A DNA stretch of 64,000 nucleotides from Carcharhinus amblyrhynchos (lineage: Eukaryota). The translations under genes and the position numbers were made by a program. The stretch is from contig OZ336884.1 of the NCBI GenBank assembly GCA_965287045.1, positions 52,266,001 to 52,330,000 of the forward strand, read 5' to 3'. Shown one piece after another: positions 1 to 62,639 of the stretch. The stretch's first letter is position 1; each line of letters starts with the position of its first letter. Under the pieces are notes generated by a model that made no database searches, was not told where the DNA came from, and saw only the letters and a program-made list of their open reading frames with translations.

Positions 1-2355
1 CCAGAGAGCATGTAGCTTATAGTCATTGTGTGTTGTGCTCTGCATAACCCAGCTATTGCAAGGGAGGGAAACACTGGACCAAATGGACACCTAAACAAGT
101 GCACATGCCTCAGAGGAGAAATCCAATGATGACTCGGCTGGGGAGCCTGGGCAATCAGAGGGATGCAGCATTGCTGAACCCGCAGGGGGGTGCTGGATCA
201 CAGGAAGGCATGCATTCATTGTGTCACATTCATTGTTAACCAGGGGCGCCACTTTGTTCACACAACTCAGAGATGTCAATGCCCAAAGCACAATGTCATC
301 TCAGGACCTCTCTAATGAATGTTGTTGTCTCTACATTCCATCGTCATGGTCTGATAAGGCCAGCAGCACTAAGAACAAACATCAGGACCACTCAGGTCAA
401 AGCTACACTTTTTTTTATCTGCTCGACAGAGTACAAGACAACAAATAGAAAATAACATGTTTGGCCAAGTAACAGACACAAAATGATACTTCGATGAAAG
501 AAAGAAAAAACACCTGTAAAAACCCAGCCTATGCCTAAGGTTCCTTAACCTTACACTTGCAAGTGCTACATCTTGGTACTCCCCACTTGCTGGCTTCAGG
601 CAGATTGCTGACTGCTGTCACACTGGCCCTGATGGCCATGGTGGTCGTCCTCTTGCCCATGGTGTCTGCGCAGCAACATGGCTGGACACTCCTCAGTTGG
701 TGCGGACTCAGGTGATGCCTCATTACTGGCAGAGGGCAATGGAGCTGCCACCATCTTGAGCAGCACTCTGACAGGAATCCACAATGGCAACAGACAGCTC
801 ATCTGCCAGTGTGAGTGCCTGCATCTCCCTGTTTACCAATGACTGATGTGCACCAAGTGCAGAGACCAGGTGCCTGATCCATCTCTCACATTGACAGTGG
901 CCTCCTGAGGTCATTGCCTGGATGAAGGCTTGTCGATCCGAGAGCAATCTCAGGAATCCCTGATTCTGCTCTTGGAGTAGCTGTTCAGTGAGAGACGCCA
1001 CTCTCTCAAAGGAGTGATTGTGATGTACCCACACTACAGTGCACTCTCAACTGAGATAACATGCTGTAGTAACCAAAGTGATGGTGCTTGGTACTGAGTG
1101 TGAATGTGATGCTGGTGTATCCCTCAGAAGCTTGTGTATAGGCGTGGAGGGGTGAGGGGGTGCTTTCAGCCTCGGCTGATGCTTCTGTGGATACAAAGAA
1201 AATGTCACTAACATCCTTAGTAAATATCTGCCTTAGCACAGTAGTGCCTTTCCTCAACAGTCACGTGCCTCAATTAGCTTTCACTGTAACCAATTCACGC
1301 ATTCTCAGAATCTGATCTTCTTCATGGTGATAGAACAACTTGGCCCTTCCCGCACATTCGCCCACTCTCTCCACTGTCCACTGAATTCTTACTATCCTCC
1401 GGCACCACTGCCTCACTAACTGAGGACCATGCTCCATGATTGTCCTCGAGGTCCAGGTCATCCATCTTAAATTAGGTGATTATGGTGGGTTTAGGCACTC
1501 CACTGCCCATATGCATGTGCTCCCACACAGAATGGCTTCACTTTTCCTGACATGAACAAGTATTTCAATTAGTGAAACCTTCTCTGGTGACATCATTTCA
1601 ACCGCATGAATCTCCCACCTGAATGCCCAGCCTTAAGTGCCTGTCAGACTGATTTGTCACCCTTCCGTTCACTAAAGGTGCAAGGCCCTATCTCCCACCC
1701 ATGGTATTCACATGGTGAAACCTCCTTTGGCACTATGTATCTCTAATCCCTGAATACACTGACTGATATCCACCCTCCAATCCTTCCATATTACCACATG
1801 CCAAGTTGGTACTCACCCTTGCGGACTGCAGAAGATCATTGAAGGGATTCCGTCAGGCGCACAGTACCACATTATGCTCACTCTCCGGTGCTGCCATTCC
1901 ACTCCATGCCCTCTGGGTCTGGTGGGAGGCCTCCTCCTGCCATTCTATCTCATTGGTACATTATGCTAGACACCCATGGCCTGCATCAGTCTCACAGGCT
2001 GTCATTCATAAAGTGTGGGGCTGAATGCCCACCAACATTGGCAGCCCTCCTGCCATGCCCACCTGTTGCAGAGGCCCTTCCAAATCTGCCTGGCCCAGCT
2101 CAGAGGTCCTTCCTCCTACCCTTCGCAGTCGCCTCACAGCTGCCTGACCTCCTTTTATTCTCTGCCCGGTTCACATGTTGACCCAACACCTGCCAAGCTC
2201 CCATCCCCACCGTCAGCGTGGGACCTGTGTCTGGTCTTGATTAATGTTGGCCGGTTTTTAGGTGGCCAGCATGAATACAATGTTGGGCTGCGATCTCAGG
2301 TGGAAGTGAGTATCACATTCGCTTTGTCCCACCTGACATATGCAAAATTCACGTC
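1..2355. mobile_element. Decayed PIF/Harbinger DNA transposon (convergent transposase 3' end on + and Myb/SANT-like gene on -), left part outside window
   Basis: + frame from base 1 reads PESM*LIVIVCCALHNPAIAR, resembling the Harbinger/HARBI1 C-terminal IIVACCVLHN motif. Minus strand ~1817-2050 reads APHF...GRRRPP...RNPFNDLLQSAR then donor AGG|gtgagt, typical of Harbinger Myb/SANT proteins. End resembles family TIR (gcaaaattcacgtc ~2342-2355). Confidence 0.7.
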
Positions 2356-2574
2356 TATATACACTTTCAGAGTTGAATAATTAACTTTTATTATGACATT
2401 GAAAAAAATAATTTCAAAATTTTCAACAATAATTTGACCACACTTTACTGATTTAATGTGGAATTTGCAAATCTGATCAACTGTGTCCTGGCTAAATTTT
2501 ATGGCTTCTGGTGACGAGAGCAGTCCAAGTATCTTCAAGCTGCTGCATCAATGGCCGTCCCTCCAAAATAAGGT

Positions 2575-3850
2575 TAGAAATGCGGATTTTTGCTGATGAT
2601 TGCAATGTTCAGTTCTATTCACAGTACCTCCAATAATTAATCAGTGCATCCCCTAATAAGACATGGGCAACATTCAGGTCAGGGCTGATTAGTGACAAGC
2701 AACATTCTTTATAAACAGGTGTGAGGTCCTAATCGTCTCTGACAAGTGACAGTCTGAAAACCACCTCCCCTTGGCATCAACTATGGGGGTGGGAACTTGG
2801 CGGGTGTAGGGTTAACAGGTGAACAGGGGAGAGAATATTCCATCACTGACACACCATGGCTGCAGTGTAACCCTCATCAAGACTCCTTTGCCAGCAACAC
2901 ACAAACTCTATCACCTTGAAGAACAAGGGCAGCAGACACATCACCACCTGCAAGTTCACTTCTAAGTCACACACCATCCTGTCTTGAAGTAAATTGTTGT
3001 TCCTTCATTATCACTGGGTCAAAATCATGGAACTCTCTTTCTCTAACAGCACTGTGGGTATGCCTTCTGTGGATGAATGGTTTGCAGAGATTTAATTTTT
3101 AATGTGCTGAAAGATCTTCAAACAAGCAAATCTCATTTTTGGTTACAGTTCGTTTTTCACTATACTGGGATTTCTTGTGGCCAGATGGGCCTGTAACTTA
3201 TCAAAGAACACAAGGTGTTAGATGAAATAGATTATCCTTGGCTGGGAGGAGTTCTTTACAGATGTTTGGAGCCAGTGTTCCTTATCTGGGCATTGCAATG
3301 TAAACAATGTGCACTTAATAGGGTCTAGAGTGACCAATACCACTACTCTGGTTGTATCTGACAGGCCTAATCGAACAATGCAATTGTAGTTTTTGATCAA
3401 TTCATTGACTGGTTACCAACAAACTTTTGGAGTTTTAACTATGCTAACACAAACAGCTTGTTCAGAAGGCAGTGTGAAGAACCTGGGGACCAAGCTCACA
3501 AGGAGAGACAACATCTGGAAGAAGAAGAAAGCAAAGGACTGATTCCATTTGACGAAAAACCCCTGGCCAGGGTGGGAATCAACCTTAAATAAAGTACATT
3601 GAGTATTTGGTTTATGCATTGTAAGTATTTACTGTTGTTTAAGTAGCTACAAAATAAAGGAAATCGTGTTCAAGTACTTAAAGTTGACTTTGTGTCTTTG
3701 TTTGCTACAGAGGTTAAAACACACAGGTTTCAACAACACTACATTACGTTGACTGCAATGGTTCAAGAACCAGCATCAGAACCTGCTCAATGACAACGAG
3801 AGGTGAGTAATAAATGCTGACCTTGTCAGCAATGCCCACATCCTGTTTAA
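2575..3850 (+). mobile_element. Old CR1/L2-clade LINE 3' remnant, interrupted by a solo-LTR-like insert at ~3069-3735
   Basis: FADD-like gctgatgattgc at ~2593. 3' tail (gagtaataaatgctgacc...aatgcccacatcctg ~3806-3845) also occurs at ~51885-51925 and inverted at ~5450-5500. Insert begins TGTGG, ends CAACA and has AATAAA near its end. Confidence 0.5.
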
Positions 3851-5429
3851 GTATGAAAGAAAATATACAATTTTGTGGCAATACCTGTGGCTTAAATAGA
3901 AATTGGATATGGTGAAAATACAAATCTGAAAACTGTTAGCAGAAAATACCAGTAAAATTAATTGGAGCTTAATACCTGATGGAAAAGCAAGTTATGCATT
4001 TGAACTTAAAACTGGCCCCAAGATATCTATGTTGCAGTCACAGGAGACATGTATGACAAAAAAAAATGAATGTTGCTGAGGGGATGAGGGTTGTGCTGGG
4101 AGAAGATTGAACTCAATGATCACAAATAATTATTTTCTCCCTCAGCCCAGGGTGTTTGGCAAAACCCCCAAGTTATTACCCTCGAGACTAATAAAAACAA
4201 AACTGTATGATGAATAATGTTGTATGACTAAAATTACACATATATACCTTCATGGCACTGAAGAAAAATAGAAATGTATACAATTTATCAAATTGGAAAT
4301 AAGCTACTTGGCCGAATCAATTCAAGATAGCATTTACCCTCCAAATAGTCCTGATCACATCTATCCCTTCATTCCCATTTTGTGCATCCATCCAGGCAAT
4401 CAAAACTTGCCTGCCAGCACGAATGCTGTCTCAAACATTCTAGTAAATTCCACAGCCTCACAATTCATTGTATAAAGAGACTGATCTTCCTCTCTGTTCA
4501 AACTCTCTTACATTTAACCTTGTTCTATCTGTCCTCATGTTCCTGACACCTCAGTTGCTGGAGTCTTACCAGAATGTTGAAAACTCCCCTATCGTGTTGC
4601 AGAATAATATGCATAATTTTAATTATTTCTTTTCAATTCAAGTTTTCATTTTTGATTTTCCTATCACTTCTTGCTACGAATGTTGAGTGGAAACAGGTAT
4701 GAAGTAATTAAGTCCCTAAATCTATGCAAAGCATGCCAAATTTAGAGCACTCAGCATGTTGATGCTAATATTGCAACATAGCACCTACTAAGCCTCTGTT
4801 AGAATGAAAGCTTTTGAATTTGAATACCTAAGAGGTTTATTTTTGGTGCAGGCAGGATCTTGATGCATACAAAGAATTATAGTACCAACTGAAATGCTGT
4901 AGTTGTAAAAGCTCATTAAAATTGTAAATGAAGTACAAGGGGATCAACATTTTCATGTAGTTCAGCTCTGAAGACGAAAAGTAATGTTCAGAAGTATTAT
5001 AAATCTGTTTACGACAAATTAATTCCTGTGTAATTACATTAACTTCAAAAAAATACTCAAAATACTTTACCTCTCACAGGGAGTGTAGAAGACATGTCTG
5101 CAGATTGTAATTTAGATGATTGGGAAGTACTAGTTCCGAAGGCCATACAAATTAGTTTTTGAAGCTTCACTACAGTAATGGGCACTAATAAATTCATCAG
5201 CACACAATTACTCCCTTTCTTCCAGTACGGGATCTTCCTTCGATTTCAGGCAGTAGTTCATTTAATTTGAACAGCAAAGGCAAATGATGATGTTCTGTAT
5301 GGCATTCTGGCATGGATTTTAATGAGAACAACTAGGTGGAAATATCAAAGGAAAGATGGACATTTCTAACACCTATAAATTTCCTCTCAGTTACCCATAG
5401 GTATTTTACACAATAGGAGTCATTGAGCT

Positions 5430-5590
5430 TTTTTTGAATTCATTTGTGGGGCATGGACGTCGCTGGCTGGTCAGCATTTATTGCCCATCCATAGTTGCCT
5501 GAGGACAGTTGAGAATCAACCACATGGCTGTGGCTCTGGAGTCACATGTAGGCCAGACCAGGTAAGGATGGCAAATTTTGTTCCTTCACA
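5430..5590 (-). mobile_element. LINE/SINE 3' tail remnant
   Basis: cagcatttattgcccatcc...gagtcacatgtaggccagacc; related copy at ~21960-22130. Confidence 0.5.
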
Positions 5591-6151
5591 GTCTTGCCAA
5601 TGGCTCACTGGGATCATTATGGATACTGGGAGAACAGATATGGCAGGTACATGGCAGTGGTGTTGCATGGGAGGAACAGGAACATGGGATATGAGGGGTC
5701 ATAGAGGAAGCATGAGAGAAATGCAGGCAGTGGGGATAGAAGGGATGGGTTGGGGATGTACTGTGGTTGAATCAGTGCTAGAAGGAACAAAGCATGACAG
5801 CCTATAGTCATGATTAAAACTGAGCCGATGACCTAATAGACAGATACTGGCATTTCACCCTGCTGGTCTTGCCATTCGCCTGGTTCCGTTGCCACTTTGA
5901 GTTTGCCACGAAACAACGGCCTGATTCAATCCCTCCTGCCACCCTGGAATGAAAATATGGTGAATGGAAGCCTCCTTAAGAGAGACACGTTTCTGAACTT
6001 GGAAACATTTCCAATGTGTTCAAACTTTCCAATATTCACCTAGTGGAAATTTCTGTTCATCCAGTATTGAAATTGGACAAGCAATCTGATAATTTAGGAA
6101 CAGTGAAATTGTCAAGAGAGCTGGTATTTAGGTAGAGCTCAGCATATAGTA

Positions 6152-6773
6152 GACCGAATTTTACTGGCGGATGGATTACCTAAGCCCCGACCTAAAAGTT
6201 GGTTAGCACTCTGATGATAGGAAATTTGGCTGCTCTAGAGCAATAATATTCGCTGAGCAGTCTCAATTAGTGCAGAATGGGCATTCCACCCCAGGGGCAC
6301 AAGAAGACCCATTCTAGAGTGCTGCCGGCCAATCTCATTGGCCAACAGCACTGTAGTCCCACTAGCACCAGAAGAAAATAGTGGCCACTGCTGGACTGAC
6401 ACTCAGTTCCCACGAGCAAGTGAAAATGTCTCCCAGGCTTCAGGTGAATCTGGGGATTTTGGTTGGACATGGTTGGGAGACCCATGGTTGGGGAACGGGG
6501 TGAACGAGCTTGGGGGTGTGGTGATAGGGAGGCTGGAGGACAGCATCAAACAAGAGGTCCTATTTTAATGAATATCCCAATAGGCACAGTCCCCCTCCCC
6601 CCAAAGGAGGTACACCCTCCAATATTCCTGCCCAATAGCAGCCTTTCTGACAAAGTTGCTGGGCAGCACCCAATTTCCACTTTCTACCGAAAGATTGCAG
6701 CTGAGCTGGAATGAGGCCCTTAAATATCAGTTAGGTTTCTACACAGGTGAGGGGTGGGCTGTAAAATTCACCC
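6152..6773. mobile_element. Harbinger-type non-autonomous element
   Basis: Imperfect TIRs gaccgaattttac ... gtaaaattcaccc, like other MITE ends in the window. Confidence 0.45.
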
Positions 6774-9081
6774 TGCTGTGCTTTCTGCCTATGCTGCCAA
6801 TGGGGCAGCATATAAATGAAAATAGGAATTTGCCTATATTACAGTCATATGGGATGTCAGTTGTGACTTTGACAACAGCTGTTATGGTATTGTGGCAGGG
6901 TAGACACCTGCTTAGAGAGGTTCAAATATGAGGTTCCAAGAAGGATGGAAACAAAGTTGAGAAACAACAACATGCAAGGACTTTGGAAAGGAAAAGCGGG
7001 TTGGAGATGGATTTGTAGTTTTCAAGGGTGATGGGGGTCAAGAGTTTTTTCTTGAGGAGAGGGGAGATAATTTCAGATTTAGGAGTGGTAACACTTGCAA
7101 CATTAAATTGTCACCTAAGATTTGAACCAAGTGCAAGGTTAGGTGCTCAGCAGTTTGGTGGGAATAAGGTCAAGCACTTTAGAAACCAATATGTATTGTG
7201 AGGTCCCAACCTCGTGATGCATATCATTATTGAGTTATATATGAACATTTTCAATGTAAAAGAGCACTTATTACCCTGCTAGCTGTACATATAATGCACA
7301 ACTCATCAGAAAATGCTGTAAAGAGGGGAGTGCATTAGCATCTGTAAAGGAGAAAGAACAGATTTATTTTTGGGTCCATCCCTTTGTAAGAGCTTTTTGA
7401 CAATAGGGTACAGCAAAATGTATTTTCTTTGTGCTGATTGACTGACTGTATTTGAAACATTTCATTGCTTTTATTTTGGAAATTCGGTAGTTTGTCTTTT
7501 TATCTGCACATGAATGTGCATGTGCCCGGATTATATTCTGCTATGAAGACTCTGGTTTCCTCTGAAATTGAGAGAAAACCTGTTTGTGCACAGGTGCACA
7601 CCGTAAATCTGCCGACACAAGTACAACAGCCCTCCATATTTCTGAGGCAACCAGAGAATTGTATCTTTGCATTCAGTCCACTCCGTACAAGCAGATTCAA
7701 TGCTCCTCAACTGCACTGGTCACTGCAGTCTGAGTTCTTTACATGCACAAATAACTTCTGAAACTGTGCTGCGATTTTGTTAGGAAATATGTTAATGAGA
7801 ATACAACACTGAAGTTGTTGGTACAGTTAAACCTACATGGAGCATCACAATCTTTGGAGAGAAGGGTGAATGGGGAGAGGAATTTAGAGGAGGGCTTTGT
7901 GATAATTTGGTCACATCACTCAGGTCCAGCTGAACTTGCAAAATCTCTTGGGTTCTGTATCTACATGGAGATCTTTATCAAAAAGTTGTTAACTATTTGC
8001 TTCTGGAACAGAGAATTCACTTTTTTGAAGTCCCAACATTTGCTCCGACTCTATAAAGTTTGTAATTTGCTGCTTCTGTATCCATATAGACATTATGAAC
8101 ACCCAGAAGTGACAAATTATAAATAGCCTTGAGCAGGTGTCAGAGCCATGATATGAAGAAGTACTACACGAATGAAGCAGAGAAGGGTCGACAGATGTGA
8201 TCAGGTCTTCTAGGGCTGAACTCAATTACTTTCATAGCTCCAAACTGCTGTGGAGAGAAGGTGGGGTAGTGGGATGAGAGGGTGGCAGGAACTATCTTAA
8301 GTCAAAACTGCTTCTGTATATCAGCCTCAACATGTTTAACTGCTTGTTCTCAGATTCCTCTGGAGATGATTGCTGTTCTGTGTCTTTATGGCAGGTTGAG
8401 CTTACATCCTTAATGTAATGTAATCTAACCTAATCATTCTGCTTAACTGAAACCACTTGTTACACTGGCCTGACACATGGCTAAGGTTTAATCTGTTATA
8501 ACCAAAGATCCCTTGAATGTTTGTATTGCAATAATATTTTCCATGCCCTCATTCTCAATCATTTTCCTAGCAATTTTTGCTGAAGCTTGAAAATACTGCA
8601 TTGAATTTCCAATGCCTTGGCATATATTTGCTTCACTTGTGTTTCTTATAAGCATCACATATTGCTAGGAGAAAGAAAAATAATTCTCCTTTGATGTGAA
8701 CTGAAATAGCAAAGCCAACAAAATTAAAATGGAAGGAACTGCAAATAAGTGTGTGTCACCAAATTATAAATGAAAAAGCTGAAAATCCTTGGATATTTTA
8801 ATCATTCATCGTGAAGCTTCACAAGGACCTGTTCCAAATGAGCTAGAGAAGTATCCTCCTCGATCCCATGGTATGGGGACAGAAAATCATGCTAGCTTTT
8901 CTTTCATTGCATCAAAATACTAATAAAATATATTCTAAATGTTGAGGATCCTTTTCAGTGAAACCACTTTGGGTCATCTACAACCTCTGCTGAAAAATCC
9001 CATCTCGCACAAAATTATCGCAGCCTCTGACTAAATGGATCAGAGATCGATTTTCGAGCTCCATATTGCCCATTCACATTA

Positions 9082-10500
9082 CCTTGGTGATTATTTTCCA
9101 AACGTCGCTGGATTCCGGGAAGTGCCGGAAGATTGGAAAACGGCTAATGTTACGCCGTTGTTTAAGAAGGGTGCCAGGCAAAAGGCAGGGAATTATAGGC
9201 CGGTTAGTTTAACGTCTGCTGTAGGTAAAATGTTAGAATCCGTGATCAAGGAGAAAATAGCGAGGCATCTTGAGGAGAATTGTTTGATAGAGCAGACGCA
9301 GCACGGTTTCGTTAAGGGGAAGTCGTGTCTGACAAATTTATTGGAGTTCTATGAGGATGTGTCTGGGGCGGTGGATAGAGGAGAGCCGGTGGATGTGGTG
9401 TTTCTTGATTTTCAGAAGGCGTTTGACAAGGTGCCTCACAAGAGGTTATTACAGAAGGTCAGAGGGCATGGAGTTGGGGGTAGGGTGTTAGCGTGGATAG
9501 AGGATTGGCTGTCAAATAGGAGGCAGAGAGTAGGGGTCAATGGGTGCTATTCTGATTGGCGGTTGGTGACTAGTGGAGTGCCCCAGGGGCCGGTGCTGGG
9601 GCCTCAGCTATTCACCATTTATATAGATGCTCTGGAGGAGGGAACTGAGTGTATGGTGTCGAAATTTGCTGATGGCACCAAGATTGGTGGAACGGCAAAT
9701 TGTGCAGAGGGTGTGGAAAGTCTGCAGAAGGATCTAGATAGGCTGGGCAAATGGGCCAGGAAATGGCAAATGGAATTTAATGTTGGCAAATGTGAGGTCG
9801 TCCACTTTGGTAGGAATAATGGTAGGAAGGATTATTACTTACGTGGCAAAAAACTGCAGCATGCGACGGTGCAGAGGGACCTCGGGGTCCTTGTGCATGA
9901 GTTGCAAAAACCCAGCCTGCAGGTGCAGCAGGTGGTCGGGAAGGCGAATGGGATGCTGGCCTTCATAGCGAGGGGGATTGAATATAAAAGTAGGGAGGTC
10001 TTGCTGCAGCTGTATAGGGCACTGGTGAGGCCGCAGCTGGAGTACTGTGTGCAGTTTTGGTCGCTGCACTTACGCAAGGATATTTTGGCCTTGGAGGGAG
10101 TGCAGAGGAGGTTTACTAGGCTGATTCCGGAGTTGAGGGGGTTGAACTATGAGGAGAGGCTGAATAAACTAGGCTTGTACTCATTAAAGTTTAGAAGAAT
10201 GAGGGGAGATCTTATTGAGACGTATAAGATGTTGAATGGGATGGATAGGATAGAGATGGAGAGGCTCTTCCCGCTCAGAAAAGACAGTAGGACTAGAGCG
10301 CACAGCCTCAAGATAAAGGGGGGGCGGTTTAGAACGGAGTTGAGGAGGAACTTCTTCACACAAAGGGTGGTGAATCTCTGGAATTCTCTGCCCGTTGAAG
10401 TGGTGGAGGCTGCCTCGCTAAATATTTTTAAGACACGGGTTGATAGGTTTTTGATAGGCAAGGGGATTAAGGGTTATGGGGAGAGGGCGGAAATGTGGAA
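9082..10500 (+). mobile_element. Young 5'-truncated CR1 LINE, ORF2 reverse transcriptase C-terminal half
   Basis: ORF 9035-10510 has CR1 motifs VPEDWKTANVTPLFKKG, NYRPVSLTS, LDFQKAFDKVPH, GVPQG.VLGP, RPQLEYCVQFW, RNFFTQRVVNLWNSLP. Catalytic FADD reads FADG, so probably inactive. Stops before the 3' UTR. Confidence 0.95.
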
Positions 10501-10905
10501 CATGCAGTAGTTTTCTTTCTTGCTGAATCTCATTGTTACTTCCTAAGAACTTCTCAGCTTCCCTAACTGTTCCAATAACTGAGGCAATCAGACTTAAATA
10601 AAAATATTTCTTTGCTGGTTTACTTCCTTACACTACCTGCAAATAACTCCTTCTGGATACAGTTCCATTTATGGTGGACAGTAAACATCAACAAATCATT
10701 CTGAAGTGTCATTGTAAATGATCCCAGGTGTGTTTAACATAGCCTGCTGGAAAGAAAGCCTCGAGGAACTGTTGAACATTTATTTACTATCCAGATCCAT
10801 CTTCTTCTGGGCTCTGGTCACACATGATCTGGTATCACTGATGATTTATCTTAGCTATTGTCATAAAAACTATCAACCCTTTATGATGTATCTTCACCCC
10901 ACCAT

Positions 10906-11042
10906 CAAGGGGATTAAGGGTTATGGGGAGAGGGCGGAAATGTGGAACTGAGCCACGACAGATCAGCCATGATCTTATTGAATGGCGGGGCAGGCTCGAG
11001 GGGCTAGATGGCCTACTCCTGCTCCTATTTCTTATGTTCTTA
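10906..11042 (+). mobile_element. CR1 3' end fragment
   Basis: GIKGYGERAEMWN* plus 3' UTR ending cttatgttctta; first 42 bp identical to 10459-10500. Confidence 0.9.
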
Positions 11043-11306
11043 CTACCTGCATTAGGGCTGGCTCAGATATAAGATAAAATATCAATCATGCGATCAAGTT
11101 GTTTTCGTACTGTTTAGAAAATTGAAATTGTGCATTTTGTCTATTTAAGGCTACCATATAAGGCTATCCTCCCAAGTCTTTCATTCTACTCTTTATACAC
11201 TTATGCATTCTCTTTCCCTTCACTAAAATCATTATTTCCAGCTCTCAGGGAAGGATACCATGGTCTGATTTCTGCAGCAGTGGTATTCTTTCTCCTGCAC
11301 CATTTA

Positions 11307-11674
11307 AGAACATAAGAACATAAGAAATAGGAGCAGGAGTAGGCCATCTAGCCCTTCGAGCCTGCCCCGCCATTCAATAAGATCATGGCTGATCTGTCGT
11401 GGCTCAGTTCCACTTTCCCGTCCTCTCCCCATAACCCTTAATCCCCTCTCTTATCAAGAACCCATCAACCCGCTTCTTAAAAATATTTAGCGAGGCAGCC
11501 TCCACCACTTCAACGGGCAGAGAATTCCAGAGATTCACCACCCTTTGAGTGAAGAAGTTCCTCCTCAACTCCATTCTAAACCGCCTCCCCTTTAACTTGA
11601 GGCTGTGCCCCCTAGTCCTACTGTCTTTTTTGAGCGGGAAGAGTCTCTCCACCTCTATCCTATCCATCCCATTC
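11307..11674 (-). mobile_element. CR1 3' end fragment (same young subfamily, inverted)
   Basis: ORF 11404-11676 RRNFFTQRVVNLWNSLP...GIKGYGERTGKWN; (taagaaca)n tail at 11307-11325. Confidence 0.9.
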
Positions 11675-14600
11675 ATTTCTATCTCTCATCTTTATATATG
11701 GTTGAAAGGTATTGTTGAAGACTCAGGAGCTATATATATAACTTCCTATCTATCAAGAATTCCGATGGAGCCAGATTGTTCTGCAGAGGCATAGACTTGA
11801 AACACAATAAGGCTCGGTTAACATTGTTACTTATTTTCAACAAGGACTTGTCAGGACCAATTTGCTTTCAATCTCTCCATTGGTCTGTGGGAGTCAAGGA
11901 GAACTGGTGGTGTGGATAAAGCTGTATGCTTTAGTGAAGCTTTTAAAGCAGTCATAGGAAACTCAGGGCCATTTGTCAGGGACAACTAAATCATGGCTGC
12001 CTTGTATGGCAAATAATTCCCTGAGCATAGCAACAATTGCTACAGAGGTGGGGTCATATAGCCCTTTGACCTTGATCCAGCAAGAGAAAGGTTTTATCAC
12101 TGAAGACAAAGGGTTCCATCCCAAGATTCTCCCATGAATAGAATAGGAATGAAGATGCCATTAGAGGTTTCTTGGGATCTTGCCTGCAAATGGAAAAAGT
12201 AGTTCAATTGGAAATTATGTACTTAATAACTTTGGAGATATCAGGTCACCCAGACTGAATTTCAGGCTCTAAAATTCCCCGCACTTGGTGATACGTAAGT
12301 GTCTCTGGTGTAACCCATTGGAAAATGTCTAGCCTGTGCAACCTGTGAATGAGCATTCAGTCATTATACACTAACGAGGCAGTCATAAGACTAAAGTAAC
12401 TTAAGTTGTTCAAAGTATTGCTCCAGAATACAATTGCTAGAAACACACATCAGCCATGGGTGGTCACCTGGAGGAACATGGCAGAGAAGGTAATGTCGGG
12501 CTCTACATCCTCAACAAAGTGTACATCGTTCTGTGCAGGCTTTCCCATAGAAAAGTGGTATAAGGCATCAGCTGTGATTTGATGTTTACCCTGGATGTCT
12601 TCTATGGCAGCATCAAACTTCAATGAGCCATAAGCCAAACCTTTGGATTTAGGGTGGGATCTTGGCTAATTCTTTAGTGTTGGTAGGGTGAAATAAGATA
12701 GTAAACTTGGGTCCCGTGATGTAATCCAAAAGCCTGGGTGGCTGCTCGGGCCTCTTTTGCAATGGCAGCGTACTGTGATTCTGTTTCTGTCAGTGCCCTG
12801 GAGGCATTACATACTGCGCTGCAAAAGCCAGCTCACTGAATTTGGAACAAACTAGCCCTACCACAATGAACAATGCTTCAATTGTGACTATGGGCTAAGT
12901 CATTATGGCCCAATGTTTCCATAGACATGAGCATACACTTGATTGTGCCCCTGTTGGTGTTTAACCCAATACCAGGCTTATCCTCACTTCAGGAGCTGTT
13001 GATGTGGTTGTTGATGGATACAGGATTGGGCAGAACCTCAGCCAGTTGACCATGTCCATGAAATGTGGAAGCTCCTTAATGCTAAGGGGTACTGAGAAAT
13101 CTTTGTGGTTTACTGGCATTAATCTTGATAGCAGATATGTTAACAATATGGCCTAAGAGGTTGATGGTGGGTTTTGAGAACTCACATTTATGATTGAGTC
13201 TCAGGCCTGCGGCTGGAAGTGTGTAATATTATTTTCACTCTGATGCCATGTTTCAAGGTAGTGAATCCATGAATGAGAACATCATCTATATGACAAATTA
13301 CTCCTTCCAATTCTTCCGAAATGCCAGTCATGGAACATTGAAAGATCTCTGGGCTGAGTCAATTCTAAATAATAGAAAATTGAAACAATACCTCCTGAAG
13401 GGTGTGATGAATGTTGTTAGCTGTTTGAATTCCTCATCTAACTGGAGCTGCCAAAAGCCCTTATTTGCATCCAGTGTGGTGAAAACTGGGCTCCTTGTGA
13501 GCTCCCCAAGCTTTCATTGAAAGATTCCACAGGGCGGATCTCACTTTGAACTGTCTTGTTCAACTTTGTTAGGTCCACACAAATACATATTAGCCTTAGG
13601 GACATGCAACATGCTTGAGCATATGGGTTTCCAGCAATATCATCCTCTGGCTTAGCATGGATTCAATCTCTTGTTTCAATTTTTCCAAGTGTGAATTTGG
13701 AACTTTTCTTGGGATAAGTGAACGCACTGGCTTGGCATGTGGCTTTGAGCTAATATGGCAAGTTGTTTGGTGCTTCCCCAGAGCTGTGAATATTTTGCAA
13801 ATTCCCTCCTGAGTTTAGCTGATTTGACCTGGTTGTTCGGCTCCTCCATCTTGTAATTAAGTTATAAATCTGAACAAGCTTTTCAGCTCTGCAATAAACA
13901 CTCCTGAATTTTGATAATAAAGAACTTCTGCAATTCCTCTTCCCTTATAAAAAAAAGTGTGACAGTCACCTGCACTTGCACCACTACTCCTCTTCCACAA
14001 AACCTCTTCCATAAAAAGCACTTCACAATTATCAGTATCTTCAATTTCTTTAATACTGGTCAACTAAACCCTAAATTTTGTCTGGACATTTTTCGGCTGG
14101 AGTTGAAAGCTTTCTGCTGTACACCATTTGAAATGGCCTACCTCCTGCTAGAATGGCACTCTGCATTTATGACAGGACAGTCCTCATGTTTATGGAGTTG
14201 TGCCACAATGGGATAACTAGATAATGGCAGCAACTGTTCCCTCTTTGTTCTGGGTTTGCATTTTAGTGGGTGCACTGGTTGCTCACAAACTGAATTGAGT
14301 CAGTGGTCCGACTCCACAAAGGCTCTCTATAACTCTGGATCAAGGCTTGGTTCTTCCATACATCTGCCTGTCTTTCTAATTCACTGCCTTGGGAAATATC
14401 AGATCCTCCCTGGACTGCAGAAAATCAGATAAGGATTCATCACAATGCTCCTACCACAATCTTAAATGAATTCATCCTTTACAATCGCGCTGACAGCCAA
14501 AATATACAGGAATTAAATGAAAATTCAATACTTTTTCCAGATTTCTGATTGCACCTGTTAAACCTCACCTGATCTGTAATAATGGTCCTCTGAAGACTGA

Positions 14601-15518
14601 AATACAAATCAAAGGCTTTAATAACTTCTTCACAAGTTGATGGGCTCTCAACAACACCTTGTCTTATTAAAATATTAGCTGTGCTGCTGTCAATGGAATA
14701 CAGGAGTTGCTGACCTTCCTTCAGTAGGTTTTCACGTTAACCCCAAAGTGGTTTTGTATCGGTTGAATATGCAATGCCAGTTTTGCCAGAGTACTTCTTA
14801 GTCAGGCTCTTTCACATGATCAAAGGATTCTAGTAGACGTAGGACTCTTTCCATGATTGTCTGTTACTTTTAGTGAGCTTTTTTAGAACTCCGTTGATAC
14901 TTTTATGTCTGATGCTCAGTCAGTCACTCCCTGGCTGCCTTTCATTTGGTCGCTTTCACTTTGCTGCCAACATTGGTCTAATTGGGGATCTGTGCTATTC
15001 AGTAAGTTAACCACTGCCACCATGAAGTATCACTGTAAATGATCCCAGGGTGTGGTCAACAAAGAATTCTGGAAGCAAAACCTCAAGGAACGTTCCAATA
15101 TTTAGTAACTACGTACAATTATGTTCAGGGATAGATAGCACAAGGCTCCGTTCAGAACCATCTGTCTGAGCTCCGGTCACATGTGAACGGAGATCTTTGA
15201 TATATATTAACTTTTAGTATACTCGTCATTAAGACTTCATTCCGTACATTCAGTGAGCATTTGGACATAACATTCAAAGATGCACACTTTAAATACAGGA
15301 GAATAATCAGGAAGGCAACCTTTCGCTAATTCACTCTTAACTGACTCAACACAGGCTATTGATAGCTTTGCTTAGTACTATTGTATCTGAGTTCAGTACA
15401 GATTGTGGATCAAATGTAGAACTTTCCTTTCTTACAGAGCTTAGTTCTTTATTGAATAAAATGGCTGAGCCAGCAAATCAACTTTTACCCTCATTAAGGA
15501 TAAATGTATTTATAAATA

Positions 15519-15816
15519 TGGGCAGCACGGTGGTTAGCACTGCTGCCTCACAGTGCAAGGACCTAGGTTCAATTCCTGGCTTGGGTCACTCTCTGTGCGG
15601 AGTCTGCACATTCTTCCTGTGTCTGTGTGGGTTTCCCCCAGGTGCCCTGGTTTCCTCCCACTGTCCAAAAGACATGCTGGTTAGGTGCATTGACCCATGT
15701 TAAATTCTCCCTCAGTGTTCCTTAACAGGTGCCGCAATGTGGCGACTAGGGGATTTTCACAGTAATTTCATTGCAGTGTTAATGTAAGCCTACTTGTGAC
15801 ACTAATAAATAAACTT
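15519..15816 (+). mobile_element. tRNA-derived SINE (HE1/V-SINE-like)
   Basis: ggcagcacggtggttagcactgctgcctcacag...ggttcaattcc (A/B boxes), core gtctgtgtgggtttcc...ggttaggtg, tail aataaataaac. Confidence 0.8.
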
Positions 15817-17312
15817 AGAAATAATATTTTAAATGATTATATTGCAAGTATACATTTAGTAATTCTCTGAACATTTGTATATTTACATTAATTGAAAAAC
15901 CCACAGAGTGTTGTTAATTGCAGAAATATGAAGGCACTCAACTCAAGGACAATACTGGAAATTATTGTAGAAAAAAGGGACAGAAAATTAAGTGGCAATT
16001 TTCTGTCTCTTTTTTCCATATCACAGAATACACATTCCTTGTATGCAAACAATAATTTTACATTGAGCCAATGGTTTAAATATAAACAGTTGAATATACC
16101 CCTTTTTCACTCCAACATGATTAGTCAATTGAAAGTCAGATAGCCCCGAAGGGAAGCCAGTGCTGCTTGATATCAACTTGTCTGCTGTCATTCAAGGACC
16201 AGCTCCAGCAGTGATTATCTTTGCCAGAATTTCAATGAAAATATTGTCAAAGGATTTTTTTTATTTAAAAACACGCAATGCCTTTAACCCGGGATGCAAA
16301 TTGAATGCTCTGCTCAGTCTGAAAGACCAGCTGTGTCCCATTTTCAAAAGAAAAACCATCATGACACAATTATAACTTCAGCACCTGAGAGTTAGTCAGT
16401 CCTGTTGACCTAGTTAATAAGAATGTTACTCCACGTTTCACCATTGTATATCCTAGTTATATCAATATGTTCTATGTTCTATGTTCATGTTACAAATTAG
16501 AATAATCATATTCTGCAATATTTATTTTCAGCATATCTATGATTATATGCAATATAAATCAGAACATTCTGAGTTAAATAATTAACTTCTGGCTTTTAAA
16601 GATTATATATTTGTGCAACAAAGGTTATTGTATGGGAAGAAGTTCGCCCAAAATTTCATTTCAGCTACTGAAAACAGCAGCTGTACAATTTATGCACCAT
16701 TTTCTTATTTTTACTGCTAGATAATGACAATGATGAATGCATTTATGGGGAAATAAATATTCACTAAACTCAAGTCAAACATGTCTCCTATTTTTCCCAT
16801 TCTACCATCACATGAAGGTACAGGGATCATTTGTAGCTGCAGGAGATTTATTTCAGGAGAAGATGGAACTGTGCCCATGACTGCATCTCATGACAATTTA
16901 ATAGTTCAGCTAAATTAAACCTAAGGCAATACTTGTGCGTAACCAGAGTAATCAATATCATTAAAGTTGATGTCAGCCATAATCATATCAGATATATGTG
17001 GAGGAACAAGTGATTAGCTGTGGATGTAAATCAAGAGAAGTGTGTAACGTAAGGAAGACTTGGTTGCCAAAAAATTAATGTAAAGCACAGAGGTCAATGC
17101 TTTTCAGGCCAAGCCAAAGTGAGGTCAAGTATACACCTTGTACAATGGTTAAATACCAGAAAATGAGAAATCATGCACTAGTCACAAAAGCAGGGAAAGA
17201 ACAGCACTAGCATTTTTATGTAATGACTATAATAGACTATTTGAGGATTTTTAAAAAAATCTATGTGGATGTTTATAAGAAGCATTCATTCTTTTTATGA
17301 GCTCTTTGGAAA

Positions 17313-17673
17313 CATAAAATTATGATGGGTATAGATAGAATGAATGCAAGCAGGCTTTCTCCACTAAGGCCAGGGGAGAAAACAACTAGAGGACATGGGT
17401 TAAGGGTGAAGGGGGAAAAGTTTAAAGGGAATATTGTTGGGGGGGAGGTTCTTCACACAGAGAGTGGTGGGAATGTGGAATCAGCTGCCAGATGAAGTGG
17501 TAAATGCGGGCTCACTTTTAACATTTAAGAGAAATGTGGGCAGGTACATGGATGAGAGGGGTGTGGAGGAATATGTTCCAGATGCAGGTCAGTGGACCAG
17601 GCAGAAAAATGGTTCGGCACAGCCAAAAAGGGCCAAATGGCCTGTTTTTGTGCTGTAGTGTTCTATGGTTCTA
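17313..17673 (+). mobile_element. CR1 3' end fragment
   Basis: FFTQRVVGMWNQLP (ORF 17434-17658); tail ttctatggttctat. Confidence 0.85.
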
Positions 17674-17989
17674 TATGGTATGAAGCTACGATAATATAAT
17701 TATGACCTCCAGCAGGTTACACACACTTTAAAAGCATGTCTACCAGTCTGCGACGAACACGTTGGAGAAGAAACAAAGCTCCAATGGCTTATTTCTATAT
17801 ACTGAGACCAGATACTAAAAGTTGGATTTTAAACATGAAGAAATCCTGGTACAAATGTGTTGTAACCAATCTAAATGGCAGCAGATTTCAAATTCCCATG
17901 ACATGATTAATGATCCTTTCCGGCTCTTTAACTTCCCTGTCCATATAGAAGAGAAGGAGAAAAGGAAAAAGTCCCGATTACATGAATTT

Positions 17990-19310
17990 GTAATCAGACG
18001 TGGTTTTGTGAAAGGAAAATTGTGCTAAACCAATTTATTGGAGTTCTTTGAAGAAATAAAGTGTGCTGTGGATAAAGGGGAACCAGTGGATGTACTGTAA
18101 TTAGCTTTTCAGAAGGCATTTGATAAGATGCCATAAGAAATGTGATTGCGAAAAATAGCTGTTGTAAGGACTAACATAGTGGGGCATAGATTGGCAAGCA
18201 AAAGGAAATGGGGGTAAGTTGTCAAGATGTAATGTGTGGTGTGCCACAGACATCAGTACCAGGGCATTCAATTTGTTATAATTTATATAAATAAGTTGAC
18301 CAAAGATATGGTTGCTCAATGGTACAGAGCTAGATATGATCATAATTTGTGAACACACAAGGAACCTGCAAAACAAGAAACATAGGCTGAATGTGTGGGC
18401 AAAAGGCTGGCAAATTGAATATAATGTGGGAAAATATGAAATTGTCCATTTTGGCAGGAAAATTTAAAAAAGCATATCAGCGAAACGGTGAGAGGTTAAA
18501 GAACTCTGGGATGCACAGGGAACCAGAGGTCAGAGTGTGTGAATCACAAAAAGCTAGTCTGTGGATACAATAAATAATTAGGAAAGCTAATAGAACATTA
18601 CCATTTATTACAAGGGGAACTGAATACAAATGTAGGGCAGTTGTGATTCAGTTGTACAGGGCATTGATGAGACCACATCTGGAGTACTGTGTATTGCATT
18701 GGTCTTCATTATTGGAGGAGAGTATTATAATGCGTTGGAAGAAGTTCAGAAATGGGAATCTGGGATTGAGAAGGTTTTCTTATGAGGATATGTTTGACAT
18801 GACAGGTTTGCCTCTACTGGATTTCAGAAGAATAAGAGGTGACTGACTGAAACATAGGAAAAATCCTGAGTGGTCTTGACGTAGGTTCTCCTATCCTCCT
18901 CTTGTGGGAAGATCTAGCACTAGGGCCACAGTTTAAAAATAAGGGATCACCTATTTAGGACAGAGATGAAGATTTTTTTTCTCTCTAAGGGCTGATAATC
19001 TTTGCAACTTTCTTCCCCAAAAGGCAGTGGAAGCAGTTATTGTTCTTCTTTCCCTTCCAACAGCTAATGTCACACAAAAAAGACTTTCATCTACTTTGCT
19101 ACAAGCAAGAAAATTTGAAAAGCCATTGCCCCAGGAGGCACAACTGCAAGGTCAACTAAGCTATTTAGCAGGGAATCTTTATATGAAGGAAGTATATTAA
19201 GGGATATTTAGGAAGGTAAGGGATTTTGTTTGTATAACTAAAGCTGCCATGACTTGCAAAAATAATGAAGCAGGTTCAAGGGGTCGAGTGAACTATTTCT
19301 GCTCCCATGT
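17990..19310 (+). mobile_element. Old degenerate CR1 RT remnant
   Basis: GFVKGKLC, FQKAFDK, LYRALMRPHLEYCV in broken frames. Confidence 0.75.
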
Positions 19311-19546
19311 AGTTAACTTCTCTGGTTAGACATGCCAGGCAGTTTCAAAAGATTTGTATGATGGCTGTGGTTGAGATAGCCCAAAACTGGCACAGTCAGA
19401 GGAAGTGAATTGTTAATGGTAGCCATCCAACAAACACACTACAAAGTAATTCCTTATTTTCAACTTTTATGATTAATACTTGTACAAAGTTAATTGAATC
19501 CGACTTTGGTTAACAATGTTCTTCCCTAATTTCATTAACATCCTAC

Positions 19547-19744
19547 CTTTAAACAAATATCCTGCTTAGAGAAATCTTCAAAATCCTTGGTTTGGAGCTC
19601 CGGAGAGTTGAACAGAAGTTCCACGTCACACACAGCTTGGTGAAGCTGGCGTATCTCTGCCAGGTAGGCAGAAGGCATGTAAGAGGTTTCAGGCAGTATC
19701 CCTTCAGTCAGCACAGTTACAGTTTTCTCTTCGTAAGTACTTTG
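19547..19744 (-). CDS. DMD: Dystrophin coding exon, ortholog of human exon 42 (198 bp, phase 0-0)
   Basis: tttcacaccag|CAAAGT...TTAAAG|gtagga; QSTYEEKTVTVLTEGILPETSYMPSAYLAEIRQLHQAVCDVELLFNSPELQTKDFEDFSKQDICLK vs human ...SYVPSTYLTEI...LLNAPDLCAKDFEDLFKQEESLK (195 bp). Confidence 0.95.
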
Positions 19745-39826: not shown

Positions 39827-40009
39827 AATTTGCGGATAGTTCAACCTGCGATGTTGAACAAATTTGCTCTCAATGTCACTCCAGCGTTTGTTGAGCTGGA
39901 TCAGCTGCAGCTCCAATGCCTTAGCTGCTCCTCTCTTTGACAGGCTCTGCGCTTGCCTGCACACTGCATTCAGGTCTCCTCTCTTCTCTTCCAGTTCAGC
40001 ATCCATCTC
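39827..40009 (-). CDS. DMD: Dystrophin coding exon, ortholog of human exon 41 (183 bp, phase 0-0)
   Basis: ttactcattag|GAGATG...CAAATT|gtgagt; EMDAELEEKRGDLNAVCRQAQSLSKRGAAKALELQLIQLNKRWSDIESKFVQHRRLNYPQI vs human EIDRELQKKKEELNAVRRQAEGLSEDGAAMAVEPTQIQLSKRWREIESKFAQFRRLNFAQI; same length as human. Confidence 0.97.
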
Positions 40010-42409: not shown

Positions 42410-42562
42410 CTTCATCTTCTGGTCATCTTTGGGTTCTGGGAGACTGGCTAACCTTTTCTCAATGTCATCCAACCACTGCAAAAGGTTGTCGGCCTGCTTC
42501 TTGTACTGATACCAATGTGGAGAAATCTCCAGTGCCTTTTTCCTCCTAATAGATCTTAAATC
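42410..42562 (-). CDS. DMD: Dystrophin coding exon, ortholog of human exon 40 (153 bp, phase 0-0)
   Basis: ttttaaacag|GATTTA...ATGAAG|gtaaca; DLRSIRRKKALEISPHWYQYKKQADNLLQWLDDIEKRLASLPEPKDDQKMK vs human DLRSQRRKKALEISHQWYQYKRQADDLLKCLDDIEKKLASLPEPRDERKIK. Confidence 0.98.
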
Positions 42563-46620: not shown

Positions 46621-46758
46621 CTTGAGAATATTAAATTTAGCTTGCAGCATCTGTTGTTTCATTCTAATTTCTTCTCGCTTTTTCTCATTTGTGACACTCT
46701 GTTGCAAAGTGTCTCCCATCTTTGCCAGTTCATTCATTCTTCTCTCATCATCTTCACT
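46621..46758 (-). CDS. DMD: Dystrophin coding exon, ortholog of human exon 39 (138 bp, phase 0-0)
   Basis: atattgcag|AGTGAA...CTCAAG|gtatga; SEDDERRMNELAKMGDTLQQSVTNEKKREEIRMKQQMLQAKFNILK vs human NEDNEGTVKELLQRGDNLQQRITDERKREEIKIKQQLLQTKHNALK. Confidence 0.95.
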
Positions 46759-55384: not shown

Positions 55385-55501
55385 CATCTCTTTCTCAAAA
55401 TCCCCTTCTTTCAGATTCTCTCCTTGTTGTATTTCTGCTTCCAATTCATCCAGCATTTGCTGGACCTGTGTATCAAACCGTTCCAGCTCCTTTGGAAACA
55501 C
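55385..55501 (-). CDS. DMD: Dystrophin coding exon, ortholog of human exon 38 (117 bp, phase 0-0)
   Basis: ttctcatcttccag|GTGTTT...GAGATG|gttagt; VFPKELERFDTQVQQMLDELEAEIQQGENLKEGDFEKEM vs human ASIPLKELEQFNSDIQKLLEPLEAEIQQGVNLKEEDFNKDM (123 bp). Confidence 0.95.
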
Positions 55502-59174: not shown

Positions 59175-59312
59175 CTGAGATGGGCCAGGAAAAAGAGGGG
59201 GATGCAGAGAGGAACCATACGTTGAGGTTGAAAGAATTGTTGATAAGCTAGTCAGTCGATAGGTTTCCTTCAGTCCCTGAGTCGATTTTTGTTGACTTTC
59301 CAGAAGTTTAAG
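59175..59312 (-). CDS. Candidate extra dystrophin exon (138 bp, phase 0-0, GC donor)
   Basis: Pyrimidine tract ctcactctcctcactgtcttgcttcttttggtgaag|CTTAAA...TCTCAG|gcaaga; open frame LKLLESQQKSTQGLKETYRLTSLSTILSTSTYGSSLHPPLFPGPSQ. Confidence 0.4.
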
Positions 59313-59809: not shown

Positions 59810-60800
59810 TTTACAGCATTGAAACAGGGCATTCAATCCAATAGATCCACATCAGTTTTAATACTTCACATGAGCCTCCTCCCGCCGTTCATTTAACCCT
59901 CCTCAACGTACACTTCATATTGTTTCTCTCCTATGTGTTTATCTAGCTTAAATGCATTTATTCCAGTCACCTCAATTCCTCTTCATGTTAGCAAGTTCCA
60001 CATTCTAACCACCCACTGACATCTTTCCTGAATTCACTTTAGCAACTATCTTTTATTTATGCCCCCAAACTCCATTTTCCTTCATAAGCGGAAACATCTT
60101 ATCCACGTCTACCCTTTGATAACCTTAGTACTTCTATCAAGTTATTCCTCAATCTCCTCGTCCTAGAGAAAAGATTCTAACTTGTTCAATCTTTCCTGTT
60201 AAGTAAAAAGTGAGTTTATAAACTTATATTATTCAAGTAAATCATTTTTGCACTTTCTCCAGCGCTTCTATATCCTTTTTACAATACAAAGGCGAGAACA
60301 TTTGCATTCCTCCAAGTGTGATCTAACCAGGTTTGACAACTTCTCTGCTGTTCAGTTCCATTCCTCCAGAAATAAACACCCCATGCTTTATTTGCACTTT
60401 TAAATTATTATTTTTAATGATCTGTCTATCTGTACCCCATATTCCTCTCATCTACTTGTTTTAGACACTTTCCAAGGAACGAGTGGCCTCTTTATTCTTC
60501 CAACCAAAATATACCACTTCACACTTGCCCATATTGAAGTTCATTCTCCAGTCACACGCTTCTTCAAGTTTTTTGAATATCTTTCTACATTTTATCTTAT
60601 GAGTCCTCTATATTAATTCATTGTACAATTTGGTGTTGTCTGCAAATTTTGAAATTGTATTTCATATCCCTCAATCCAAGTTGTATATATAAAGAATAAA
60701 CAAGTGGTCTTAGTGTCAATCCTTGTGGAACAATACTTGCAGATTTTGCACTCTAATTAACAATCCTTTGTTTTCTGTTTTGCAGCTATTTTGCTATCCA
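59810..60800 (-). mobile_element. Very old CR1 remnant
   Basis: gcaagttccacattctaaccaccc, ttttgcactttctccagcgc, accacttcacacttgcccatattgaagttcat, ttggtgttgtctgcaaa (FADNTK on minus). Confidence 0.65.
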
Positions 60801-61505: not shown

Positions 61506-61616
61506 CTGCTGCTGTACCTTTTCCTGCACAGCGAGAAAACTCTTCTGGTTTTTCAATTCGTCAGGATCCATCAGGAATGTAACCGGGATAACAGATACTT
61601 GCTCCAGCACTGGTTG
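61506..61616 (-). CDS. Candidate extra dystrophin exon between orthologs of exons 37 and 38 (111 bp, phase 0-0)
   Basis: cctcacatgcttgcttttcag|CAACCA...CAGCAG|gtatga; QPVLEQVSVIPVTFLMDPDELKNQKSFLAVQEKVQQQ; unique sequence; not similar to human exon 37. Confidence 0.6.
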
Positions 61617-62639
61617 CTGAAAAGCAAGCATGTGAGGAAAAGGAAGTACAACTAAGAATTGGTTTAAGAAGAATAGGGACCCACATACAAAGGGCACAAC
61701 AAATTCAGTGTTTTTACACCAGAAAAAAGACTTACTCCTCAGTGAACTCCACAGTTGTTTGCAAAAACATAACTTTTTACTGGGTTCCAATAATTATACT
61801 TCAAGTTAAAAAAATGCACTAATTGGCATTTAGCAGAAAATAAACATAGGTAGCTGTAGTACCAAAAGAGATATACTGCTAATACTAGAAAATTGAAATA
61901 GAAACAGAAAATGCTGGAAAAACTCAATGGGTCTAATGGCACCTGTGGAGAGGTAAACAGTTAAAGTTTCATGCCTGATGATGCACCTAACATATTAACT
62001 GTGTTTCCCTATCCATGGCTGTTGTCACATCTACAGAATATTTCCATATTTTGTGATTTCAAGGATAGCTGTGATGTTGGAACTTGTTTCCAAATTCAAC
62101 AAACCGTGAACTAAGACCAATTTGTCCTTTATTTTCTTGAATATTCACCTAATTATCATAAATTTTGAAACATTTTTCTGCAGTCAGGCTTCAGACAAGA
62201 AAAACCTTAAAATTAACAATAGAAAACAGAGACATTGTTAATTTTGTTTGCCCTAACCTATGATAAATTATATGGCCTTGCAAAGTATATTGCAAAAATC
62301 TTGAATAACTCCCACTGGAACACAAAGCATATTTATAGGCCTTTTTCCAATTTTGTTCTGAGACTTATTTTGGGGAAATGCTTGGCAAAAAATCTGATAT
62401 GGACTTTGGAGGTTCATGCTGGATAGCCCCCAAAAACAAACATGAAGTTCACAATGTACAAACTTTGCAAATTGATTGCAATGCAATGCAAGAAGAACAC
62501 TGCATAGTGCTGCTTGCTGGTTGCTGTGTGTAGCCATTGCAAACCACGCTGTTCATTGGTTACATGCATCAGCAGAAGGACTAAATCATAATTTTCCCAT
62601 AAATCTTAAAGCTAATCTGCATCTCTCAAAGGGGTGGTG

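Follow-up and report, generated by a model that had tools for sequence, protein, structure and literature searches.

Two in-frame cassette exons between exons 37 and 38 of shark and bichir dystrophin, a candidate optional hinge in the rod

We describe two in-frame exons in intron 37 of the dystrophin gene (dmd) of the shark Carcharhinus amblyrhynchos, which we label 37a and 37b and which lie in the window, the whole 64-kb stretch of DNA analyzed here. Judged by its homologues in catshark and bichirs, 37a is almost certainly a real coding cassette, and it is this homology, not the splice signals, that leads us to call it real. The explanation as a whole, in which an ancestral in-frame pair acts as an optional hinge of the dystrophin rod, we regard as likely.

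The window carries dystrophin on its minus strand, with five exons orthologous to rod exons in order and phase:

55385 to 55501, minus strand, orthologue of dystrophin exon 38, 117 nt
46621 to 46758, minus strand, orthologue of dystrophin exon 39, 138 nt
42410 to 42562, minus strand, orthologue of dystrophin exon 40, 153 nt
39827 to 40009, minus strand, orthologue of dystrophin exon 41, 183 nt
19547 to 19744, minus strand, orthologue of dystrophin exon 42, 198 nt

The lengths of all five are multiples of 3. Their order and phase agree with those of dystrophin from shark, bichir, gar, paddlefish and mammal; relative to the gar, sturgeon/paddlefish, frog and amniote models sampled, the window has two additional in-frame exons between exons 37 and 38. 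The closest protein sampled comes from Mustelus asterias (identities of 37/39, 46/46, 51/51, 60/61 and 63/66 for exons 38 to 42). Exon 37 was not found in the 64-kb window (best tblastn E 0.38), and exon 43 had no match in positions 1-19546, the last 19.5 kb in the direction of the gene; intron 42 extends beyond the window. Compared with bony vertebrates, shark exon 38 (55501-55385, minus strand) has two codons fewer at its 5' end, the junction distance being 42 versus 44. Positions 9035-10507 (plus strand) hold a stop-free frame of 491 aa that resembles a LINE reverse transcriptase, and further fragments lie elsewhere in the introns.

The extra exons and the segment affected by an internal splice site are as follows:

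61506 to 61616, minus strand, cassette exon 37a, 111 nt, 37 aa, phase 0-0, AG acceptor, GT donor
61506 to 61517, minus strand, the 12 nt cut off by an internal AAG/gtacag donor (99-nt variant), the use of which is without support
59175 to 59312, minus strand, cassette exon 37b, 138 nt, 46 aa

In the minus-strand sequence, 37a is preceded by a pyrimidine tract with ttttcag at its end and followed by gtatga, its length is divisible by 3, and its phase-0 frame of 37 aa is open with no stop. The acceptor of 37b is weak (ggtgaag) and its donor is of the non-canonical GC type (CAG/gcaaga). A sequence-only reading of this DNA had proposed a 111-bp in-frame exon with strong acceptor and donor and no stop, and all of this is confirmed at 61616-61506; the phase 0-0 match to the neighboring exons that it described also holds through exons 38-42. 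The acceptor that it placed at 59312 was borne out as well, as the start of a real second cassette, 37b, which is seen in public models. The internal donor of 37a (exon end 61518) is present as it had said, but the 99-bp variant built on it found no counterpart, with a 33-aa insert in 0/2 shark inclusion models. We rejected this variant: the inserts in shark models measure either 37 or 83 aa, and no sampled model carries one of 33 aa.

Splice-site strength was dropped as proof of 37a, because comparable candidates arise by chance in simulated sequences and on the opposite strand. At equal splice thresholds, the gene strand of the 64-kb window yields five open candidates of phase 0-0 and the opposite strand two, and 20 Markov-simulated sequences gave a mean of 1.1 (range 0-6). 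Low-level cryptic exons are known in human DMD introns, and 37a could in principle be such a pseudo-exon or an annotation artefact, with an open frame that happens to be flanked by chance splice sites; in keeping with this, similar splice signals arise by chance about once per 64 kb, most shark models skip 37a and the sequencing contigs examined show no spliced joint. Two successive chance exons would not be expected to agree in position, phase, order and sequence between shark and bichir, or to be as conserved as constitutive exons, as we find below; we hold this origin to be very improbable, and the shark-bichir homology already largely refutes it. A scan of 300-nt flanks for splicing-regulator motifs found one TGCATG upstream of 37b and no pattern overall. 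High-copy repeats, recognized by contig depth in all four sequencing runs examined, lie at about 61860-62000 and 60460-60670 of the window, the first of them about 250-380 nt upstream of the 37a acceptor.

The 37a peptide is placed exactly between exon-37 and exon-38 sequence in 13 dystrophin models. It is identical at 35/37 positions to model X10 of the catshark S. torazame, at 19/37 to Polypterus X1 and at 20/37 to Erpetoichthys X2. In the same comparisons, exon 38 is identical at 32/39 positions to catshark and at 20/39 to Polypterus, for which exon 39 gives 22/46, and exon 38 identity to the bichirs spans 18-20/39; on these identities, 37a is at least as conserved as constitutive exon 38. 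Exon 37b, which comes after 37a in both the shark and the bichir lineages, shares 41/46 residues with S. torazame X10 and 20/46 with Polypterus X1. For 37a and for 37b each, 0/5000 shuffles reach the shark-bichir alignment score, and scores of 37a/37b cross-pairings do not beat shuffles. Between shark and bichir the conserved core consists of the last ~20 residues of 37a and the first ~27 of 37b, with ends that drift. The 37b peptide is rich in Ser/Thr (33% in the window; 32-39% in all three species compared).

The supporting proteins are computed gene models from automatic annotation. In S. torazame, X10 (XP_072370088.1) includes 37a and 37b, GCB65403.1 includes 37a, and X12-X14 skip both. 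In Erpetoichthys calabaricus, a 35-aa 37a is present in 8/9 listed long models (X1, X2, X5-7, X9, X11 and X12) and skipped in X8, and in Polypterus senegalus both exons are present in 3/3 listed long models (X1, X2 and X4). The public models of these three species thus have the same exons, junction and order as the window, and gene models place inclusion and skip isoforms within one species in the first two (2 versus 3 in S. torazame, 8 versus 1 in Erpetoichthys).

To gauge how widespread the exons are, the matching part of sturgeon dystrophin was used as query against proteins of 2934-5000 aa. The best 120 of 630 matches, widened with isoforms from three protein clusters (among members listed, at most 15 per cluster), gave 284 sampled dystrophins of more than 900 aa. 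We could place the exon 37/38 junction in 262 of them; the remaining 22 comprise short or partial sequences and, among those inspected, models that skip exon 37. Exon 37a is carried by 13/262 models, from three species only (2 from S. torazame, 8 from Erpetoichthys calabaricus and 3 from Polypterus senegalus), and 4 of these 13 carry both exons, while 37b without 37a occurs in 0/4. Among sampled shark models with the junction, 19/21 skip 37a, including all 6 from Cetorhinus, Carcharodon X1 and Rhincodon X1 and X4, so that inclusion may be minor or tissue-restricted. A direct 37-38 join is present in 221 bony-vertebrate models among the 262, from gar, sturgeon, paddlefish, frog, turtles, lizards, crocodilians, birds and mammals, plus one from Erpetoichthys and two from bowfin. 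None of the gar, sturgeon/paddlefish, frog and amniote models in this biased sample has 37a or 37b. The first 120 matches were ranked against an insert-less query, which tilts the sample toward skip forms, and the sample is without teleost, coelacanth, lungfish, chimaera, ray and lamprey.

Other irregularities occur in this part of the rod. In the bowfin Amia ocellicauda, 9/11 models (sample labels P0006, P0166-P0175) have a 3-residue insert, VQQ, at the 37/38 junction; these letters are those of the end of 37a immediately past its internal donor, and either a remnant or the use of an alternative splice site could account for them. Models from turtle, zebra and crocodilians omit exon 37 without breaking the frame (sample labels P0209, P0237, P0242, P0249 and P0252) and several mammalian models omit exon 39, so that amniote annotations likewise point to a hot spot of alternative splicing in this stretch of the rod.

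Sharks and bichirs sit on opposite sides of the deepest jawed-vertebrate split, and for this reason 37a and 37b are very probably ancestral to jawed vertebrates. On the evidence of protein models, they were apparently lost more than once, with at least two losses or silencings needed, in other ray-finned fishes and in tetrapods. The sequence-only reading had described 37a as unannotated, which it is not, as the exon already stands in XP_072370088.1, GCB65403.1 and bichir RefSeq isoforms. Its view of an extra, in-frame, alternatively spliced rod exon is supported by the gene models, and the exon is absent from the mammalian proteins examined. The frame-preserving conservation that it asked for is there, with a homologue at the same junction in catshark, reedfish and bichir. 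Of the two histories that it offered, restriction to one lineage does not hold, since 37a is not shark-specific and has a homologue in Erpetoichthys and Polypterus; loss in mammals agrees with the absence there but is too narrow, as gar, sturgeon/paddlefish, frog, reptile and bird models are also without the exon.

Direct searches with the short peptide came back empty. A phmmer search of the 37-aa peptide against 1.84 billion representatives gave 0 matches, and a word search of proteins of 71-2000 aa retained 0/5 candidates; both missed the full-length dystrophins because such searches do not reach 3,700-residue proteins, and their emptiness is no evidence of novelty. A metagenome scan yielded 433 pattern matches, 0 of them confirmed. 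A search of sequencing runs with a 9-kb query, a length that could mask a small RNA match, listed no RNA run. In 4/6 sequencing runs examined, contigs cover the intron without a spliced joint, and no variant falls in either cassette among 40 listed of 144 substitutions and 12 listed of 21 indels. A literature search, with most subscription papers outside its coverage, found no description of 37a or 37b, and "exon 37" and "exon 38" have 0 occurrences in the main text of PMC1790709, whose supplements may bear on this claim. The exon pair is thus apparently undescribed, though present in automatic annotations.

What might the inserts do? In an AlphaFold prediction of a catshark fragment with both of them, the insert (residues 106-188) is a coil-helix-coil of low confidence, with pLDDT <50 at 106-137 and 146-188 and not below 50 at 138-145, values that may reflect a shallow alignment (26 rows, with 37a in 4 and 37b in 2). 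A tentative helix at 123-148 covers the conserved core, between confident flanking helices at 77-103 and 190-213. The predicted skip form of hippopotamus has helices at 77-103 and 110-133 with six non-helical residues between them. The same two helices are thus separated by a short break in the skip form, which suggests that inclusion of the cassettes lengthens a break already present between two spectrin repeats, at a junction that we take to be R13/R14 in human repeat numbering.

The inserts do not have the form of a spectrin repeat (PF00435, a three-helix bundle of about 105 aa). It is improbable that they are what remains of a spectrin repeat or hinge, lost or duplicated, which once filled the short R14 region: the phase 0-0 shared with all neighboring rod exons and the helix predicted in mid-insert would suit it, but neither peptide has a Spectrin match, and the 83 aa are mostly coil and form no three-helix bundle in the AlphaFold prediction. 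Moreover, small profiles of 37a and 37b found no other match in the 284 dystrophins (best other scores -1.2 and 0.2 bits), and we rejected a duplicated hinge or repeat on this lack of similarity elsewhere in the sampled dystrophins.

By prediction only, and from a shallow alignment, the insert has the features of a hinge: it lies between repeats, has no stable fold and contains prolines. In spectrin-family proteins a continuous helix links successive repeats, as a passage of PMC3401230 describes, so that an insertion of 37 or 83 residues, most of them unfolded, would be expected to behave as an optional hinge. Passages of PMC10293626 describe the hinges of dystrophin as proline-rich unfolded segments that are poorly conserved, and place its second actin-binding region at R11-14 or R11-17. 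We propose that 37a and 37b are in-frame cassettes inherited from the jawed-vertebrate common ancestor, and that splicing would yield three forms: a direct 37-38 join, a form with 37a (37 aa) and a form with 37a and 37b (83 aa). The insert would fall where one spectrin repeat ends with its last helix and the next begins with its first, and inclusion would widen the 6-residue break into a flexible hinge made of coil, one short helix and Ser/Thr-rich coil. Placed in the middle of the actin-binding region of the rod, this hinge may uncouple R11-13 from R14-17 and alter the flexibility of the rod and the register of its actin-binding repeats; the conserved helix core may double as a docking site. 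We infer splicing in this species, the hinge behavior, the effect on actin binding and the repeated loss; that a hinge or linker is the main role of the insert is a reading we favor with moderate confidence, on the predicted structure.

The good conservation of the 37a core is more easily squared with a binding motif than with a simple spacer, given that known hinges are reported to be poorly conserved. The cassettes could then be real and yet selected as a protein-binding or phosphorylation module, with flexibility incidental, an option that we consider possible but rather doubtful; equally tentative is its specific form, in which a tissue-specific partner binds the helical core of 37a and phosphorylation regulates the Ser/Thr-rich 37b. 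The drift of the ends around a core kept between shark and bichir, the AlphaFold helix over that core and the Ser/Thr content of 37b in all three species speak for such a module. Against it, the repeated loss suggests that no partner is essential, neither peptide matched a Pfam family and 37a had no usable Atlas match.

Returning to the hinge that we prefer, hinges H2 and H3 of dystrophin resemble the insert as proline-containing, low-structure segments between repeats, with no detectable sequence similarity to it. They are constitutive whereas the insert is optional, and its core is better conserved than hinges are reported to be. Utrophin offers a likeness in position and character: a passage of PMC6435810, citing Winder 1995, describes an unstructured segment at R13-R14. 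This is the same inter-repeat junction, with the dystrophin junction taken as R13/R14 in human numbering, and the same unstructured character; the utrophin segment is described as part of the standard protein, whereas the shark and bichir inserts are cassettes. Descent of both from one linker predating the dystrophin-utrophin duplication is a speculative and unlikely idea. If it were true, splicing would have let early jawed vertebrates alternate between two dystrophin rods, one continuous and actin-binding, the other broken as in utrophin and bearing a conserved binding helix. The short form would have become fixed independently in tetrapods and in most ray-finned fishes, and the dystrophin rod would possess a fifth hinge, a regulated one, as well as a site that naturally tolerates insertions.

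The exon structure of the dystrophin rod is commonly taken to be constant among vertebrates. The significance of our findings is tempered by the exons being already in automatic annotations and by the hinge role being a prediction. Two cassettes kept over the shark-bichir divergence suggest that the R13/R14 junction was alternatively spliced in early jawed vertebrates and that it tolerates 35-83 extra residues. They would offer a handle on the evolution of the actin-binding region of the rod relative to utrophin, and a natural joint between repeats that might be exploited when mini-dystrophins or tags are designed.
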